Part shown: one piece after another, positions 3,511 to 38,335 of the stretch
Numbering within the stretch: position 1 is the first letter of the stretch
Layout: each line of letters starts with the position of its first letter
IMG/VR virus record: IMGVR_UViG_3300045988_119069
Reading direction: 5' to 3' (one strand)
Source of the DNA: a virus
DNA: 64,000 bases
Translations under genes and position numbers: made by a program
Notes under the pieces: generated by a model
Databases searched by the model: none
Told to the model about the DNA's origin: nothing
Seen by the model: the letters and a program-made list of their open reading frames with translations, nothing else

Positions 3511-3561
3511 GTATTGTTTTTGTGTTGTTTTGTTTTGTTTTCTCTGTTGTTCTGACTCCCC

Positions 3562-4161
3562 TCAGTTAAACCATTTCACAGTCGTCTCGCCCTTATATCC
3601 TTTCTCCCATACAAACCAGGCGTAAGCCGCAGCGCTGCTTCCGCACTTGTCGAAGTCTCCATTCATAGCGCATTTCAGTCGCGACGAACTTACCCAAACG
3701 CGAATGGGGGGGGAAGAACGGAAGAGAGCGCGTCGGGCCTTGCCTTCGAGGAAAGTCAGCTTCAGAAACATCGCCACCTTCTTTCCTTTGGGAATGATGT
3801 TCAGAGCCTTCTCCACAAACTGCTGCGCGAATTTGTAGGGAGGATTGGTAACGATGTCTCCGTCCCACGCCAAATTATCAATAGCGAGGAAGTCAGCCAC
3901 CTCGCCGTAGCCTCTATCCACAAGGTCGCGGCTCACCACCTCATACCCTGCTGCCTTCAGCACCTCGCTCATGTGACCCTCGCCACACGACGGCTCAAGA
4001 ATCCTTCTCTCAAATTGTTCCAGCTTGCACAGCCATTCCGTCGCCTTCGGTTCTGTGGCATAGTAATCCTCCCGCTGCCTATCCGCATCCGTATGGTTGC
4101 TTGCGCCCAATGTCTTGAACACAGCAGCCGAGCCACCTACCCAGTCCTTAGCCATTGTCAT
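3562..4161 (-). CDS. N6-adenine DNA methyltransferase (NPPY type)
   Basis: Motif I-like ILEPSCGEGH and motif IV IVTNPPYKF. A C8 homopolymer on the coding strand lies at 3706-3713. Confidence 0.75.
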   Translation of the reverse strand: MTMAKDWVGGSAAVFKTLGASNHTDADRQREDYYATEPKATEWLCKLEQFERRILEPSCGEGHMSEVLKAAGYEVVSRDLVDRGYGEVADFLAIDNLAWDGDIVTNPPYKFAQQFVEKALNIIPKGKKVAMFLKLTFLEGKARRALFRSSPPIRVWVSSSRLKCAMNGDFDKCGSSAAAYAWFVWEKGYKGETTVKWFN

Positions 4162-21845: not shown

Positions 21846-21918
21846 AGCGGAGTGGAGCAGCTGGCAGCTCACTTGGCTCATAACCAAGAGGTCGAGGGTT
21901 CGAGTCCCTTCTCCGCAA
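21846..21918 (+). tRNA. tRNA-Met (anticodon CAT), initiator-like
   Basis: Hand-folded cloverleaf. D stem GAGC/GCTC. Anticodon stem CTTGG/CCAAG with loop CTCATAA. T arm GAGGG-TTCGAGT-CCCTT. 1:72 A-A mismatch and A11:T24. No encoded CCA. Confidence 0.85.
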
Positions 21919-21980
21919 CATAGTCAGTCGGCAAAAAGATTGATTTTTCAGGATAACAACACAAAACACAGATTTTACTA

Positions 21981-33066: not shown

Positions 33067-33630
33067 ATGAAAGCAAAAAACAAGGTACTGCTTGACAGAT
33101 ACGACCTTTACTTTAGAGGTGTTTGGAAGAAACCCTACAACTATCCATCGCTGTTAGATATAGTACAGCGTCGCATAGGATGGAGGGCTGACGTACTTCG
33201 TTGTTGTGACAACTGGGAAGAGATTGTTTCTATTGACCGCAAAGCGCTTTCCAACTTTTGCGACCCGAAGGTGTTCCATTTCCCGAAAAAGCGGCGTGTG
33301 CCTCCTGAAGTTTTTGACCCGAGGTATTCGATGCAAAATGAATATCACATCGTAAGGAAGAAAAACAATCGGTATAAGATTGTTCTGAATAAGCCCAAAA
33401 GACGTTCCGTTGGAAGAACCTTGGTGGTAGATACAAAGAGAGGTTATATCCGTGAGATTGGCGACAAGGTGTGGTATCATCCAGATTGGATGGATTTCGG
33501 TTGTGAGACCTGTGCTGACTTCGGAACTTGTCGGTCTGGTTATCACGACAAGAGTTTTTGTATGGTGGCTGCAAAGTGTGGAATCGGTCGCTGTAACACA
33601 TGGCTGGAAGTAAGAGAAAACAATGACTGA
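33067..33630 (+). CDS. hypothetical Cys-rich protein (187 aa)
   Basis: ORF track. C-terminal CETCADFGTCRSGYHDKSFC cluster. Confidence 0.4.
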   Translation: MKAKNKVLLDRYDLYFRGVWKKPYNYPSLLDIVQRRIGWRADVLRCCDNWEEIVSIDRKALSNFCDPKVFHFPKKRRVPPEVFDPRYSMQNEYHIVRKKNNRYKIVLNKPKRRSVGRTLVVDTKRGYIREIGDKVWYHPDWMDFGCETCADFGTCRSGYHDKSFCMVAAKCGIGRCNTWLEVRENND

Positions 33631-33935
33631 CCCTCACTACAAGCGCGGCACCATCCGCAAGGATGGCAAGCTGTATGGCCGCTATCCCGACGGCTCGCTC
33701 TACCGCATCTACTCCACCGACCGACCGTTTCTTCAGTTGGTGGACCGAGAGGGCGAGACGTTCCTTCGCATACGCCAAGCCACCGAGCAGGGCTACACCG
33801 ACTGTCCCTGCCCTGGAGCCGCCGACCTAAGTTATCCGTCCTCGGCTCTAAGGCGCAGTCGCACAGTCGGGGGGTAAGCTCGTAAACGCGCTGACCGCTG
33901 CAAGTAGCGGAATCTGCGTTTTTGTTGAATTATAA
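33623..33935 (+). CDS. C5-MTase TRD-like cassette m0, frame broken at a G6 tract
   Basis: The ATGACTGA start overlaps the upstream stop. LRIRQATEQGY...SYPSSALRRSRTVGG stops at TAA 33875-33877. The +1 frame continues GKLVNALTAASSGICVFVEL to the stop at 33933-33935. The G6 tract is at 33869-33874. Confidence 0.45.
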
Positions 33936-33950
33936 AAGGAGAAATAAATT

Positions 33951-34322
33951 ATGATTATAACGAATGATTGGCGGCTCTGGCTCGCATCAATGTTGTTTAC
34001 GTTTGTCGTAACAATTTTGTTCATGGCTTACATTTGGTGGACAGAGCGAAAACCAAAGAAAGAGATAAAAAATGATAGAGAAATAGACTATCAGAATTGT
34101 GATGCGTATTTCTTGTGTGTGTTTACCAAAAGTGGTGGATGCGATTTGCACAGAGCCTCGGAGATCAAGCAGGTTGTTTCATCTGTGAATAAAGATTATA
34201 TCAACGTAATAACGGTCGATGGTGATGTAACGCATTATGAAAATGTCATATCGTATGAGTTCAAACACGTTTTAGATTTGTCCTTGTATAATTTGAATAC
34301 AGTAAAAAGAGTAGCTAAATAG
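33951..34322 (+). CDS. hypothetical membrane protein (123 aa)
   Basis: N-terminal TM WRLWLASMLFTFVVTILFMAYIWW. Confidence 0.4.
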   Translation: MIITNDWRLWLASMLFTFVVTILFMAYIWWTERKPKKEIKNDREIDYQNCDAYFLCVFTKSGGCDLHRASEIKQVVSSVNKDYINVITVDGDVTHYENVISYEFKHVLDLSLYNLNTVKRVAK

Positions 34323-34378: not shown

Positions 34379-34723
34379 GTGCTGTTAATGTCGGATAAAG
34401 CATCTACCTTAATGTCAAACTCAACCAAGGACGCTTGCATCTGCGTCGAATCTGACGAACAAAGTGTAAGTTTTAAGGACGAACCGTCGGAAGGTGTAAC
34501 GATGGATATTACAGCCGAGTATCGCAACATCGTTCAGTTGTGGCACCCTGCCACAGAAAAGCCTTATTGCATAGGTCAACTTCTCTGTTGGTGTCACGAC
34601 GGAAAATTCTTCGTACACAACCATTACAGCCATGACGATGAAAATTGGCATTTATTCATCAGCACTAACAACATAAAGCGTTATTGCTATATTTCCAATT
34701 TGGAACCCGAATGGTTCATTTGA
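34379..34723 (+). CDS. hypothetical protein (114 aa)
   Basis: ORF track. Confidence 0.35.
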   Translation: MLLMSDKASTLMSNSTKDACICVESDEQSVSFKDEPSEGVTMDITAEYRNIVQLWHPATEKPYCIGQLLCWCHDGKFFVHNHYSHDDENWHLFISTNNIKRYCYISNLEPEWFI

Positions 34724-34724
34724 T

Positions 34725-34856
34725 ATGACTGACATTAAGATTTCCGTGCATCCCGTTAGCCATCGGCTCGAATGGCGAGGATGGGGTGATTTCTCGCCCT
34801 CCCTTCGAGCCACCGACTACAAATGCCCACACTGTATAATGATTGAATATGACTAA
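34725..34856 (+). CDS. TRD-like mini-ORF m1 (43 aa)
   Basis: MTDIKISVHPVSHRLEWRGWGDFSPSLRATDYKCPHCIMIEYD. The next ATG lies 8 nt before its stop. Confidence 0.5.
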   Translation: MTDIKISVHPVSHRLEWRGWGDFSPSLRATDYKCPHCIMIEYD

Positions 34857-34980
34857 TCTTGACTTCTACCAATATCCTCGTGGCAATAACGATGGAGGTA
34901 AATTAGACACTGACGTTTGCCCGACCGTGACAATCAACTCGTGGCAGCAAAATGTATTTCTGATTGAAGAATATGAATAA
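34849..34980 (+). CDS. TRD-like mini-ORF m2 (43 aa)
   Basis: MTNLDFYQYPRGNNDGGKLDTDVCPTVTINSWQQNVFLIEEYE. Junction attgaagaatATGAATAA. Confidence 0.5.
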   Translation: MTNLDFYQYPRGNNDGGKLDTDVCPTVTINSWQQNVFLIEEYE

Positions 34981-35125
34981 CATCACAATAGACTACCACG
35001 CTCATGCTATATCGAGCATTTATTGGAATGTTTCGCCTGACTATAAAAGACCTCCGTTAGTAGGTATTAATAGATGTGTCAAGACCGATACTCATGCTCC
35101 TGGAATTTTGATAGAATACAAATAA
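34973..35125 (+). CDS. TRD-like mini-ORF m3 (50 aa)
   Basis: MNNITIDYHAHAISSIYWNVSPDYKRPPLVGINRCVKTDTHAPGILIEYK. Ends 10 nt before the MTase core ATG. Confidence 0.45.
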   Translation: MNNITIDYHAHAISSIYWNVSPDYKRPPLVGINRCVKTDTHAPGILIEYK

Positions 35126-35135
35126 CAGCAACAAT

Positions 35136-36461
35136 ATGATCACAAAACTAAATTTCACCGACCGCACCATCAAGAGCTATGCCATCCGCAAGCTCACACC
35201 CAAGGAGTGTTTTCGCTTGATGGGCGTTCGCGACAACGTAATCGGCACGATGCAGAGCAGCAATGCTCAAGCAGCCGAACGTCTGCCCGACTGGAAGGGC
35301 AAGGGTAAACCCGAAGACATGGCTATATCTGCCTCACAGCAGTACAAGCAAGCTGGAAACAGTATTTGTATAGATGTGTTAGCATATCTATATCAAAATC
35401 TTTTCTACCCCGCTCCACCCAAGCCTCGCCCCGGCAAGCAGCTCACTCTCTTCGACGCCCCCGAAGATACCCTGCCCGCCCTGCCGCCCACCGCCGACAA
35501 GAACGAAGAGAAGATATTCCTCACCACGTTCTCCGGCTACGACTCGCAGCTCATGGCAGCCGACGTGCTACGCGAGTGGCATCCCGACTTTCGATGGACA
35601 TGCGTAGGATGGAGCGACATCGACAAATACGCCTGTCAGATGCACAACCTCGTCTTCCCTCAGTTTGCCGACTGCGCCCTGGGCGACATCACCAAGATTG
35701 ACTGGCACGAGGTGGAAAGCTCGCTCGAAGGCCGCGAAGTGGACCTCTTCACCTATTCCTCGCCTTGCCAGGACATCAGTCAGGCGGGCAAGCAAATGGG
35801 CTTGCAGGAGGGCAGCGACACCCGAAGCGCACTGCTTTGGCGTGTGGCGGATGCCGTGGAGGTGCTTCGCCCGAAGTATCTCTTGCAGGAGAACGTGGCG
35901 GCACTGGTAAGCCAGAAGTTCTTGCCAGACTTTCAGAAGTGGCTCGACAAACTCTCGTCGCTCGGCTATGTGAGCCGTTGGACGCGACTCAACGCCAAGA
36001 ACTACGGTGTGCCCCAAAACCGCGACCGTGTGTTCTGCCTCTCCATGCGCCGAGACGTAGCCTTCGACTATCAGTTTCCCGAACCCTTCGAGCTGCTTAC
36101 CCGATTGGAAGACGTGCTCGAAGAGGAAGTGTCCGACCGCTATTTCCTCAAGGACGATGCCGTGAGCAAGTTCCTCAAGGCAAACGACTCTGACAATGCC
36201 TTATTCCTTCAATTCGACCTGCCACCGACACATGAGGCGGCAATGTTCCTCAAGACCGTGCTTCAGATATTCATGGAGCGTCACGACGGATGGGACAAGG
36301 GCATTGAGTGGAACGAGAAAGAACTGAGCTATCATCGCCCAGCCATCGCCCATCTCTACGAAAAGTTCAAGGAGAACCCAAAGAAACTGGACGTGGAATA
36401 TTGGCGCGGTTTTTATGGAATGTTTAAGGAGAATATGGAGAGGAAGAAGGATGAAAAATAA
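35136..36461 (+). CDS. C5-cytosine DNA methyltransferase core, circularly permuted (IX-X then I-VIII), no internal TRD
   Basis: Motif order along the ORF: IX RKLTPKECFRLMGV, X YKQAGNSICIDVL, Pro-rich linker, I FLTTFSGYDSQ, IV SSPCQDISQAGK, VI LLQENVAAL, VIII NAKNYGVPQNRDRVFCLS. Confidence 0.8.
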   Translation: MITKLNFTDRTIKSYAIRKLTPKECFRLMGVRDNVIGTMQSSNAQAAERLPDWKGKGKPEDMAISASQQYKQAGNSICIDVLAYLYQNLFYPAPPKPRPGKQLTLFDAPEDTLPALPPTADKNEEKIFLTTFSGYDSQLMAADVLREWHPDFRWTCVGWSDIDKYACQMHNLVFPQFADCALGDITKIDWHEVESSLEGREVDLFTYSSPCQDISQAGKQMGLQEGSDTRSALLWRVADAVEVLRPKYLLQENVAALVSQKFLPDFQKWLDKLSSLGYVSRWTRLNAKNYGVPQNRDRVFCLSMRRDVAFDYQFPEPFELLTRLEDVLEEEVSDRYFLKDDAVSKFLKANDSDNALFLQFDLPPTHEAAMFLKTVLQIFMERHDGWDKGIEWNEKELSYHRPAIAHLYEKFKENPKKLDVEYWRGFYGMFKENMERKKDEK

Positions 36462-36597
36462 ACCGTTTCATGCTATTCAAAATGGGGGGGGTACGATTGC
36501 ACCTGCAATCACCTCCCACTATTTCAAAGCCGGTGTGCGAGATTTCTTGTTTGCGCTCGCCATACCGCATTGCTGTTTAATAGTAGAATATGATTGA
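36451..36597 (+). CDS. TRD-like mini-ORF m4 (48 aa)
   Basis: MKNKPFHAIQNGGGTIAPAITSHYFKAGVRDFLFALAIPHCCLIVEYD. The ATG overlaps the core stop (ATGAAAAATAA). A G8 tract lies at 36484-36491. Confidence 0.5.
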   Translation: MKNKPFHAIQNGGGTIAPAITSHYFKAGVRDFLFALAIPHCCLIVEYD

Positions 36598-36727
36598 AAA
36601 GATTGGCAACATTTATTACGACAAGTGGAAGTCCGGTTTTGATGGCAACATCTGCGGCACTAAAGGAATATACCCCACCCTAACCTTGTCAACACAAACG
36701 GGGGAAGTACTGATTGAATATGCTTAG
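36590..36727 (+). CDS. TRD-like mini-ORF m5 (45 aa)
   Basis: MIEKIGNIYYDKWKSGFDGNICGTKGIYPTLTLSTQTGEVLIEYA. Confidence 0.5.
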   Translation: MIEKIGNIYYDKWKSGFDGNICGTKGIYPTLTLSTQTGEVLIEYA

Positions 36728-36872
36728 CAACCCTCGTCCCCTCGTCCTCGGCTCCTACAGCCCCTCGCAGAACGGCATCATCGTGTCACCACACGGCATA
36801 GCCCTGTGCATAGTCGGGGGAGGTAAGGGTCACGACGTGGATAAACCGAAAATATTGATAGAGTATGATTAA
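36720..36872 (+). CDS. TRD-like mini-ORF m6 (50 aa)
   Basis: MLSNPRPLVLGSYSPSQNGIIVSPHGIALCIVGGGKGHDVDKPKILIEYD. Confidence 0.5.
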   Translation: MLSNPRPLVLGSYSPSQNGIIVSPHGIALCIVGGGKGHDVDKPKILIEYD

Positions 36873-36884
36873 AGACAATCTCCT

Positions 36885-37058
36885 ATGCTACACTTTCGCA
36901 TAGCAGCCTTCCGAGGCCGTGACCCCGACAATCCGTCCGACCGCAAGCATCCCTCCAACGGACGCTTCTGTCAGCGAATGGAGATAAACTGGGGGAGTAC
37001 AACCAACACTCTCACCTCAGTAGGCAAAGACAACATGGTATATCTGGAATATGAATAG
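36885..37058 (+). CDS. TRD-like mini-ORF m7 (57 aa)
   Basis: MLHFRIAAFRGRDPDNPSDRKHPSNGRFCQRMEINWGSTTNTLTSVGKDNMVYLEYE. Same frame as m6. The junction ATG at 36865 opens only a 12-codon ORF. Confidence 0.5.
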   Translation: MLHFRIAAFRGRDPDNPSDRKHPSNGRFCQRMEINWGSTTNTLTSVGKDNMVYLEYE

Positions 37059-37200
37059 ACAAATCTCTTTCGTGCAACGCACATCAAAGCTCTGCCCACG
37101 TCGGGGGTACTCCACGGCATTGTCCGCACGCTACGACGGATGGGCAGGACTCTACGACGAGCACGGACAGCACACCATTGTATTGATAGAATATGAATAG
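37051..37200 (+). CDS. TRD-like mini-ORF m8 (49 aa)
   Basis: MNRQISFVQRTSKLCPRRGYSTALSARYDGWAGLYDEHGQHTIVLIEYE. Confidence 0.5.
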   Translation: MNRQISFVQRTSKLCPRRGYSTALSARYDGWAGLYDEHGQHTIVLIEYE

Positions 37201-37333
37201 GCATACACTAAATTGTCCGTCCGGCATCTGCTGCGTCCTGACATCCCATTACGCAAGAGAAGGATGGGCGAATATGGCAAGCAATACAACATCACAATGC
37301 AAAGCACCTGCAGTATTGATAGAATATGAATAA
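37193..37333 (+). CDS. TRD-like mini-ORF m9 (46 aa)
   Basis: MNRHTLNCPSGICCVLTSHYAREGWANMASNTTSQCKAPAVLIEYE. The terminal junction ttgatagaatATGAATAA is retained although no cassette follows. Confidence 0.5.
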   Translation: MNRHTLNCPSGICCVLTSHYAREGWANMASNTTSQCKAPAVLIEYE

Positions 37334-37353: not shown

Positions 37354-38163
37354 ATGAGTCAAAAAGAAACAAGAAGCATCCCTAAAACGGGAGCAAAAAC
37401 TTTCGAGAATGAGAAACTATCAGCCTTTCTCCACAGTCTGCCTAAAGGAGCTATGCTTTATTCGCCTTTGTTAGGCTACATGACGGTGTATGACATCAAC
37501 GAATCGGGCGTTGTGATGGCCCTTCCTAATCCTGTCGAGAATGAACCATACGATTGGCCTTTCCTTTACAACGGACGTATAGCGCGCTACGACAAAGGAG
37601 AGTGTATGCTGTTTCTCTCGCATCTTTACCGGAGTTGGAATGTGCTCAAATTCCAGCTGGGTGACATCGTGGCAATGGACATCAAGTATAAAGATGGCAA
37701 CATTCTGACCTACATTGTGATTTTCAGCGAAGTGGAATCTACTGATTATCCCAAGATAAGGACATACGCCTGCTTATGCAAAAACAGCGACGTGCTTACT
37801 TCTTACGCTCTGCTTGATCTTCGCGGTACACGCGAAGAAGAAGAAAGCATCGAACTGAGATACGCTACGCCTACGGAAGAAAAACTTCTCAATAATGCCG
37901 TGGAGAAAATCGGGAAAAGATGGGACAAGGTAAAGCAGCGTCTTGTGTCATTAGATTCTGAAGCTCACACTCCCGAGCAGCTGCGCGAGGATTTCAACGC
38001 CTTACAGGAAGAATACTATCGCTTGTGTGAACATTGCAAGAAGTTAGAGAATGAGCGTAACGATTTCCAAAAGAAAGCAGAGTTAGAGTCAGGTAGAATA
38101 CAGGAAATATTATACAAGGCTATCGAACAAGTAGGGCAGAGTAAACTACAGACCGATGACTGA
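37354..38163 (+). CDS. hypothetical protein with a C-terminal coiled coil (269 aa)
   Basis: ORF track. ATAGAGAC box 3 nt before the ATG. Confidence 0.45.
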   Translation: MSQKETRSIPKTGAKTFENEKLSAFLHSLPKGAMLYSPLLGYMTVYDINESGVVMALPNPVENEPYDWPFLYNGRIARYDKGECMLFLSHLYRSWNVLKFQLGDIVAMDIKYKDGNILTYIVIFSEVESTDYPKIRTYACLCKNSDVLTSYALLDLRGTREEEESIELRYATPTEEKLLNNAVEKIGKRWDKVKQRLVSLDSEAHTPEQLREDFNALQEEYYRLCEHCKKLENERNDFQKKAELESGRIQEILYKAIEQVGQSKLQTDD

Positions 38164-38335
38164 CAAGTATTACATCGGATGGGTACGCAGCGGCAAGGAC
38201 GGCAAGGACCTCGTAAAGAGCCGACCGCGCAAGCAGATAGCCAATACCGTGACAACCTCACCGCCAGGCTGCTTTGCCGACCCTTGCGACGGGCTTGGCA
38301 ACACCACACCGCATATAGTATATAAATTTGAATAA
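38156..38335 (+). CDS. TRD-like mini-ORF m10 (59 aa)
   Basis: MTDKYYIGWVRSGKDGKDLVKSRPRKQIANTVTTSPPGCFADPCDGLGNTTPHIVYKFE. The ATGACTGA start overlaps the upstream stop. Confidence 0.45.
   Translation: MTDKYYIGWVRSGKDGKDLVKSRPRKQIANTVTTSPPGCFADPCDGLGNTTPHIVYKFE

Follow-up and report, generated by a model that had tools for sequence, protein, structure and literature searches.

Background

Bacillus phages encode multispecific cytosine-C5 DNA methyltransferases (M.SPRI, M.Phi3TI, M.Rho11sI and M.H2I) that act in self-protection. One enzyme framework in these proteins carries two to four tandem target-recognition domains (TRDs), each a module of ~40-50 amino acids (aa). The primary papers appear in the reference lists of PMC8936443 and PMC7544214 (Wilke 1988; Walter 1992; Trautner 1996). 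In this work, we analyze a locus in which the gene for a C5-methyltransferase core is surrounded by very short genes, each of which probably encodes a single TRD. The locus lies in a stretch of 64,000 nucleotides (nt) of viral DNA (IMG/VR record IMGVR_UViG_3300045988_119069), and we refer to this whole stretch as the window.

Two further classes of enzyme are relevant. Naturally permuted C5-methyltransferases are known (M.BssHII, M.Alw26I, M2.Eco31I, M.Esp3I and M2.BsaI), and their new termini are always located in the variable region (PMC5944983). The two-subunit enzymes M.AquI and M.EcoHK31I, as well as studies of fragment complementation, establish that C5-methyltransferases can assemble from pieces (PMC3404938). 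Each ingredient of the organization that we propose is thus feasible, but in none of these permuted or two-chain enzymes does the TRD alone form an interchangeable chain (PMC5944983, PMC3404938).

A proposed split methyltransferase

We propose that the locus encodes a multispecific phage C5-methyltransferase that is split into a catalytic subunit and translationally coupled TRD mini-subunits, which would dock onto it non-covalently. We give this reading a probability of about 0.7. The first-pass annotation of the window had viewed nine short open reading frames (ORFs) around the core as a library of specificity modules, acting in trans or exchangeable by recombination. Comparative evidence supports this interpretation: the resemblance to TRDs, the core that lacks one and the exchange of modules at a conserved junction were all upheld. 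The circular permutation of the core, two additional cassettes (m0 and m10) and tracts of consecutive G nucleotides (poly-G tracts) had been missed. Coordinates of all features are given in Table 1.

The catalytic core

The core matches PF00145 in two stretches, and also matches the structures of M.MpeI (1e-26) and M.HhaI (1e-22) in the PDB. The motifs FSGYDS (I), SSPCQD (IV), QENV (VI), QNRDR (VIII), RKLTPKE (IX) and AGNSI (X) are visible in its sequence. Residues 193-350 align with residues 117-277 of M.MpeI (4dkj), and residues 15-49 align with residues 333-367. Because the order of these segments is reversed, the core is a circularly permuted C5-methyltransferase. It consists of motifs IX-X (residues ~15-90), a proline-rich linker, motifs I-VIII (~125-310) and a tail (~353-441). 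A segment of the form FPxPF...RYFL follows motif VIII and precedes this 90-residue tail at the C-terminus. The tail is matched by no TRD and by no protein outside the split family.

Positions ~218-269 of the PF00145 profile are unmatched by any part of the core. This gap implies that the chain starts just past the end of a TRD and stops about where the TRD would begin. There is no recognizable TRD in the chain of the core, which agrees with the first-pass annotation. One relative of the core, P0126 (329 aa), begins at motif I and retains the family-specific tail, and motifs IX-X are absent from it. The core may be split further in some phages, or this protein may be a wrong gene call.

Resemblance of the mini-ORFs to TRDs

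In an exhaustive HMMER search, the core recovered 27,861 relatives. The best of those with the conventional motif order are 42-57% identical to the core. Motifs VIII and IX of these conventional relatives are separated by a median of 208 aa and a maximum of 549 aa, which means that several TRDs are fused in tandem. For example, P0205 (777 aa) has approximately nine modules, each ending in G(V/I)MEV or similar.

We compared the cassettes of the window with 150 relatives of the core using blastp. All matches lie between motifs VIII and IX of multi-TRD relatives. Such a match was found for 10 of the 11 cassettes, the strongest of the m1-m9 set being m7 and the weakest overall m10 and m4 (Table 1). 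The claim that the mini-ORFs are homologous to TRDs is therefore well supported by blastp. When the tract in m0 is corrected to G8, this cassette matches a TRD module with E=2.8e-13, and the alignment crosses the tract. When a cassette matches the final module before motif IX, its tail aligns a few residues ahead of that motif (P0195 ...DNYIVEYK and P0146 ...NNFVVEPY). The m7 cassette also matches annotated methyltransferases of Streptococcus phages.

Some relatives have TRD modules and a permuted core in a single chain. TRD modules are directly before the permuted core in P0132 (...LSNAITTVTKDNLLMQESQPTYRIRKFTPRE), P0159, P0220 and P0362, the last of which has an N-terminal extension of 175 aa. 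In P0159 and P0220, an internal MIAQIN sequence corresponds to the start of their TRD-less sisters P0147 and P0156. These fused permuted relatives indicate that split and single-chain forms are close evolutionary neighbors. Two long proteins that share the 90% clusters of m4 and m7, P0305 and P0339, were rejected as unrelated clustering artefacts.

Among GenBank phages, the locus has no blastn match, and all tblastn matches of the core are below 60% identity. With the concatenated cassettes as query, the tblastn matches were limited to TRDs of the m7 type, found in Streptococcus phages and in lemur-associated viruses.

Layout of the array and its junctions

The nine mini-ORFs of the first-pass annotation (m1-m9, all on the + strand, 43-57 aa) are present at the coordinates it had given, and all the peptides it had quoted occur in their translations. 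The reading frames that it had listed (0,1,2,(core 0),1,2,0,0,1,2, with m1 set to 0) agree exactly. With m10 and m0, the array has at least 11 cassettes.

Consecutive genes overlap by 8 nt, in the form ATG N5 stop, at m1/m2, m2/m3, m4/m5, m5/m6, m7/m8 and m8/m9. This arrangement suggests coupling by termination and reinitiation. The start of m4 overlaps the end of the core by 11 nt, and there are gaps of 10 nt between m3 and the core and 12 nt between m6 and m7. At the end of m3, the tyrosine codon is TAC, and hence this tail has no overlapping ATG. The ATG in the junction of m9 opens an ORF of only 6 codons.

The proposal of a conserved junction also holds. We scanned the window with the 18-nt pattern TTGATWGAATATGAHTAR, tolerating up to 3 mismatches, and compared the result with 100 shuffles. 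The pattern has 8 matches in the 64 kb, and 6 of these, with 0-2 mismatches, are within the array. In shuffled sequences, 0.5 matches are expected, and none of the 100 shuffles reached 8.

The m0 cassette belongs to a longer type and is frameshifted in this phage. Its ORF (33623-33877) ends just past a G6 tract (...RTVGG), and the remainder, KLVNALTAASSGICVFVEL followed by a stop, is in another frame (33876-33935). Relatives have an intact protein of 105 aa that ends in ...RRSRTVGGGKLVNALTAASSGICVFVEL.

Conservation and rearrangement in relatives

Our comparison set consists of 80 related viral contigs (L001-L080) with core identities of 69-95%, or 81 loci with the window. Arrays are present in all 80 contigs, and the architecture also occurs in assemblies from several sources. 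This recurrence in independent contigs implies that the array is not an assembly artefact, and that the frame breaks, which could have been assembly errors, are genuine. A cassette fused to the core was found in none of the 75 scored loci.

The cassettes are highly diverse. Those with a strict tail pattern form 23 families of at least 3 members, and at least 10 further families have variant tails (...VFVEL, ...ICYE, ...ITYD and ...YTFA). The strict pattern yields 1-12 cassettes per locus, which is an undercount. There are 70 distinct cassette orders in 80 loci. Families C, L and R are seen both upstream and downstream of the core, which argues that function is independent of position. In closer relatives, a cassette is almost always directly upstream of the core, and distant relatives have none upstream.

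We also examined where similarity ends when two cassettes of the same family have different downstream neighbors. In 76% of such pairs (n=2849, which are not phylogenetically independent), similarity is lost within -5 to +4 nt of the stop codon. The mosaic orders and the clustering of breakpoints bear out the idea that modules are exchanged at the junction. Not every rearrangement is mediated by junctions, since the ends of a 1.3-kb indel between L001 and L002 are not at junctions.

In L031, L033, L043, L053, L054 and L073, the core gene has a nonsense codon or a frameshift, and the cassettes are retained.

Split TRD arrays are present in three further phage lineages. In L081, whose core is 44% identical, the upstream mini-ORFs end in ...LMIEYE, ...VWIEVK and ...ILIEYEQNETTD, each followed by a stop, and have the 8-nt overlap. 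L081 has a further TRD, and a frameshift at a C7 tract keeps it apart from the core. In L082 the order is conventional: motifs I-VIII and one TRD come first, and separate TRD ORFs come after them. L083 has a row of at least 7 mini-ORFs that share another constant tail, V(I/Y)ET.

Two details of L081 were also observed. The C7 tract is located at 2640-2710, precisely at the point where a change of one base would join the upstream TRD and the core. Inside an insertion within the core gene, at 3538-3726, another frame encodes a whole TRD cassette (...GVLIEYK, then a stop).

Selection on the cassettes

We calculated pooled Nei-Gojobori ratios of nonsynonymous to synonymous substitution rates (dN/dS) within cassette families. 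In the annotated frame the ratios are 0.08-0.24, and in the other two frames they are mostly near or above 1 (0.6-3.4 for the families in the window). Copies of the m1 type have a ratio of 0.16, and intact copies of the m0 type have 0.11. These ratios indicate that purifying selection on the cassettes is confined to the annotated frame and that they evolve as translated proteins, as had been supposed.

Start codons are also conserved. An overlapping ATG is present in 390 of 492 cassette tails, and in 333 of these 390 it starts an ORF of 35 aa or more. Tails without an overlapping start, such as the one just upstream of the core, mostly encode tyrosine by TAC. The codons of the junction (TTG/ATG, ATA/ATT, GAA and GAT) are rare for the genome, whose long ORFs prefer CTC/CTT, ATC, GAG and GAC. 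Their use in the junction implies constraint at the nucleotide level. A likely reason is that the junction serves for reinitiation in AU-rich sequence, for recombination, or for both.

In public records, the mini-ORFs are called as genes and labeled "hypothetical protein". The exact m7 protein occurs on 159 contigs, and the exact m5 protein belongs to a cluster of 105 members.

Poly-G tracts

The window has 10 runs of at least five G nucleotides, and 6 of these are within TRD cassettes: G6 in m0, G8 in m4 and G5 in each of m5-m8. The tracts consist of GGG codons, and GGG is rare here, at 2% of glycine codons in the window's long ORFs. Tracts of G4-G10 occur at the same positions in relatives. 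The ranges are G4-G8 for m1 (G4 in the window), G5-G9 for m4 and G4-G9 for m8. Relatives of m0 are intact when the tract is interrupted, G5 or G8, and truncated when it is G6, G7 or G9. In general, tracts of length n and n+3 are in frame and others are out of frame; among m1-type copies, 16 of 36 are out of frame.

Closely related contigs can differ in these lengths. L029 and L030 are identical over 9.3 kb except for trimmed locus ends and four internal homopolymer lengths, and L053 and L054 are similar in this respect. When the tracts of 13 distinct out-of-frame m1-type copies are corrected, the copies have no stops and a dN/dS of 0.14 at a dS of 0.39, equal to that of in-frame copies. Their continued selection implies that the off state is not long-lived. 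Either the tracts toggle individual cassettes reversibly, through slippage in replication or possibly in transcription, or long runs of G are miscounted in the assemblies.

Structural models

We modeled a chimera in conventional order, consisting of core residues 118-441, m7 and core residues 1-100, with an alignment of 102 natural conventional relatives. The model has a mean predicted local distance difference test score (pLDDT) of 76 and a predicted template modeling score of 0.74, and the catalytic domain exceeds a pLDDT of 90. It superposes on whole M.HhaI with target-normalized template modeling scores of 0.68-0.70, and on M.MpeI with 0.63. In this model, the tail of m7 (NMVYLEYE) and the N-terminus of the core (MITKL) form one predicted strand (model residues 374-386). 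In the model, this strand pairs with residues 389-399 (DRTIKSYAIRK), and these lead into motif IX. An AlphaFold2 model of a direct fusion of m7 to the core, made without an alignment, was uninformative (pLDDT 33).

Proposed mechanism and its alternatives

In the organization that we propose, the permuted catalytic subunit would carry motifs IX-X, the linker, motifs I-VIII and the tail. It would not recognize a DNA sequence by itself because the TRD is cut out at both ends. Each of the at least 11 mini-genes would provide one TRD module (43-59 aa, or 105 aa for m0), made of variable recognition loops and then a constant C-terminal strand, (V/I)LIEY(E/D). The mini-genes would be translated serially, with each start codon inside the AU-rich tail of the preceding gene and with translation coupled by termination and reinitiation. 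Judging by homology and the model, docking would be non-covalent, with the tail strand extending the β-hairpin at the N-terminus of the core before motif IX, and it would complete the small DNA-binding domain. A single pool of core protein could then methylate as many motifs as there are expressed cassettes, guarding the phage DNA against many host restriction systems. The constant junction would make cassettes independent of frame and easily swapped, and the poly-G tracts in glycine-rich loops would toggle single specificities.

A more ambitious formulation of this proposal is tentative, and we consider its chances slightly below even. It holds that the locus exemplifies a plug-in epigenetic system of phages, in which a core lacking any specificity is programmed in trans by mini-subunits of ~45 aa that are swappable at a universal junction and each switchable by hypermutable poly-G, and that such systems arose or spread in several lineages and were overlooked because the mini-genes are labeled as hypothetical proteins.

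Several points weigh against the proposed split enzyme. The TRD match of m4 is weak, and m8 has no significant TRD match in the blastp comparison with relatives of the core. The first-pass annotation had proposed profile searches as a check on the mini-ORFs; hmmscan with Pfam gave no match for any cassette, and the resemblance was recovered by blastp against multi-TRD relatives. Fusions of cassettes with the N-terminus of the core score 27-29 bits with Pfam, and real and shuffled cassettes are the same in this respect. The Pfam profile is thus uninformative in the TRD region, and the identification of TRDs rests on blastp against 150-270 relatives. In the chimera, the m7 part has a pLDDT of 52-74, and the tail of the core consists of low-confidence helices with a pLDDT below 50. 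The chimera's alignment comes from covalently fused relatives, and the model accordingly restates homology, indicating the place of the cassette rather than binding in trans. The 90-aa tail of the core could be an unrecognized built-in DNA-binding element. The core is truncated in some relatives (L031, L033, L043, L053/54 and L073), which implies that the system is dispensable or sometimes dead. The differences in poly-G length could be assembly errors in which long G runs are miscounted. Finally, fragment complementation of M.SssI needed an intact small domain (PMC3404938), whereas in this locus the small domain itself is divided.

Among the alternatives, the two that survive best are both improbable. 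One is that the array is a silent archive, and that a cassette is used only once recombination has placed it in an expression site beside the core or fused it with the core, as in the switching of pilins or variant surface glycoproteins. The junction repeat that flanks every cassette, the mosaic orders, the breakpoints at the junction and the cassette that closer relatives nearly always have directly upstream of the core would fit such an archive. However, distant relatives lack any upstream cassette, and none of the 75 scored loci has a fusion of cassette and core. Cassettes of every type have their own start codon and are under purifying selection along their whole length. Moreover, the repeats are direct, so recombination between them would delete cassettes rather than switch them.

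It is just as doubtful that the mini-proteins are translated for a different role, for example as decoys or inhibitors that bind DNA or the host's enzymes of restriction or modification. Purifying selection shows that they have a function, and does not indicate which one. However, their homology is to functional TRD modules, and their linkage is strict, to a core in which precisely that part is missing. The fused forms among relatives, and the modeled position of the constant tail as the strand leading into motif IX, also favor a role as TRDs.

Slightly less probable again is programmed recoding, in which +1 frameshifting or hopping at the junctions joins the cassettes into a conventional single-chain multispecific enzyme. 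The frame does move by +1 at most junctions, single-chain multi-TRD relatives exist, and the C7 tract of L081 is one base from a fusion of TRD and core. Yet the ATG of the overlap is conserved, and is replaced by TAC where nothing starts. GAA-UAU-GAA-UAA is not known to be a shifty site, and all three stop codons are in use. In addition, the array is broken by gaps of 2-13 nt and by unrelated ORFs, and the core is in the middle of it with its own start.

A decaying wreck of a fused multispecific methyltransferase without present function, or an assembly artefact, is very unlikely even though some cassettes and cores are frameshifted or truncated in individual contigs, given that the selection analysis largely refutes it (dN/dS of 0.08-0.24, with corrected out-of-frame copies still under selection) and that the stop-start layout is kept in 80 contigs, in three more lineages and in assemblies of several origins.

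Other features of the window

Table 1. Positions of the array and associated features in the window. Tails precede the stop codon; E-values refer to TRD matches by blastp unless stated otherwise.
Feature	Position	Strand	Description	C-terminal tail	Poly-G tract	E-value	dN/dS	Remarks
m0	33623-33935	+	longer (105-aa type) TRD cassette		G6, 33869-33874			frameshifted in the window by the G6 tract
m1	34725-34856	+	family F, 43 aa	IMIEYD		1.6e-10	0.14-0.16	
m2	34849-34980	+	family D, 43 aa	LIEEYE		9e-9	0.24	
m3	34973-35125	+	family E, 50 aa	LIEYK		4.5e-8	0.24	
Catalytic core	35136-36461	+	permuted C5-methyltransferase, 441 aa			3e-48 (PF00145)		
m4	36451-36597	+	family M, 48 aa	LIVEYD	G8, 36484-36491	0.018 (weak)	0.12	
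m5	36590-36727	+	family S, 45 aa	LIEYA	G5, 36700	1.8e-4		
m6	36720-36872	+	family A, 50 aa	LIEYD	G5, 36816	2.3e-4	0.08	60/81 loci
m7	36885-37058	+	family I, 57 aa	YLEYE	G5, 36991	3e-11	0.18	
m8	37051-37200	+	family B, TRD-like, 49 aa	LIEYE	G5, 37103		0.15	59 loci
m9	37193-37333	+	family G, 46 aa	LIEYE		1.4e-4	0.15	
Insert in array	37354-38163	+	269-aa ORF between m9 and m10					stop overlaps m10 start by 8 nt
m10	38156-38335	+	family H, 59 aa	IVYKFE		4e-3	0.18	
Junction, perfect copy	37316-37333	+	TTGATAGAATATGAATAA					pattern scan
Further junction copies	end at 34856, 34980, 35125, 36597, 36727, 36872, 37058, 37200	+						pattern scan

The 269-aa ORF that separates m9 from m10 has no PHROG match, and its Pfam matches, one of them Myb-like, are all below threshold. 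It has a coiled-coil C-terminus and occurs in some relatives only, and its stop-start overlap with m10 is like that of a cassette. In relatives, m10-type cassettes are directly after the m9 type or behind other inserts, and the spacing between the G and H families is ~172, 356 or 1002 nt. Two small ORFs lie between m0 and m1. The first (33951-34322, 123 aa) has a hydrophobic helix at its N-terminus, and the second (34379-34723, 114 aa) ends 1 nt ahead of the m1 start.

The phage is a tailed phage of ~100 kb with a tape-measure protein, a head protease and one tRNA-Met. This tRNA (CAT anticodon, 21846-21919) is just upstream of the head protease gene, and an Rfam scan of the window found one tRNA and nothing else. 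It is a gut phage whose host is probably Prevotella; the nearest metagenome bins are so labeled, which is weak evidence for the host. Scans for promoters and terminators were not above shuffles, and found no terminator within the array. We rejected a reassignment of stop codons: the standard code leaves ORFs of 2029 and 1420 aa uninterrupted, and each of the three stop codons terminates cassettes.

A 199-aa ORF on the - strand (3562-4161) has the motifs EPSCGEG and TNPPY, and a Pfam match below threshold. The motifs point to a probable small DNA methyltransferase of the amino-(N6A/N4C) class. The second 8-base run of G or C in the window, at 3706, is in this ORF.

Implications

Our literature search found no published description of a split TRD array beside a TRD-less core, which is consistent with the earlier view that this layout is undescribed. 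If the mini-proteins act in trans, the system would be, within the literature searched, the first case of a C5-methyltransferase whose specificity subunits are separate proteins. It would also be more modular than any other natural DNA-recognition system of comparable size. Such a system would help to account for the ability of abundant gut phages, probably infecting Prevotella, to handle very diverse host restriction systems. Phage phenotypes would also vary at a new level, as cassettes are gained or lost and possibly as poly-G tracts switch.

A constant core with recognition peptides of ~45 aa, in more than 30 natural families, might serve as a natural toolkit for programmable writing of 5-methylcytosine. 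Moreover, the "hypothetical protein" mini-genes on many contigs could be annotated, and their specificities could be read from metagenomic methylomes.

Comparison with known systems

The locus resembles the SPR type of multispecific methyltransferase in that it is encoded by a phage and has several TRD modules, with lengths of 43-59 aa (105 aa for m0). This likeness to the Bacillus enzymes is by description alone; the homology of the cassettes is to modules of uncharacterized multi-TRD relatives. In the SPR type, all TRDs are in one chain, between motifs VIII and IX. By contrast, this locus has one gene per TRD, a permuted core, TRDs on both sides of it and at least 11 modules. Instead of forming one polypeptide, the modules keep separate stops and starts in 80 loci. 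A multispecific enzyme of a prophage is likewise reported to have TRDs outside a single block, all of them within one chain.

As in M.BssHII and similar enzymes, motifs IX-X of the core are ahead of motifs I-VIII, and the termini are in the variable region. However, those enzymes keep the TRD in the chain and are mostly of "Type H", with the N-terminus before the TRD (PMC5944983), whereas here the TRD is left out.

M.AquI and M.EcoHK31I also consist of separately translated pieces, with the split in or near the variable region; for our locus, assembly of the pieces is a prediction. Each of these enzymes has two subunits that both have catalytic motifs, and a single specificity. In our locus, the small subunits have no catalytic motif and would form an interchangeable library.

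Type I HsdS subunits, shufflons and phasevarions (PMC7641763) offer an analogy, in that they have a separate specificity part, a catalytic part without its own specificity and switching by repeats or recombination. Their proteins and chemistry (N6-adenine) are unrelated, so the parallel is one of analogy only. In this sense, if our proposal is true, the mini-proteins would be the cytosine-methylase counterpart of HsdS.

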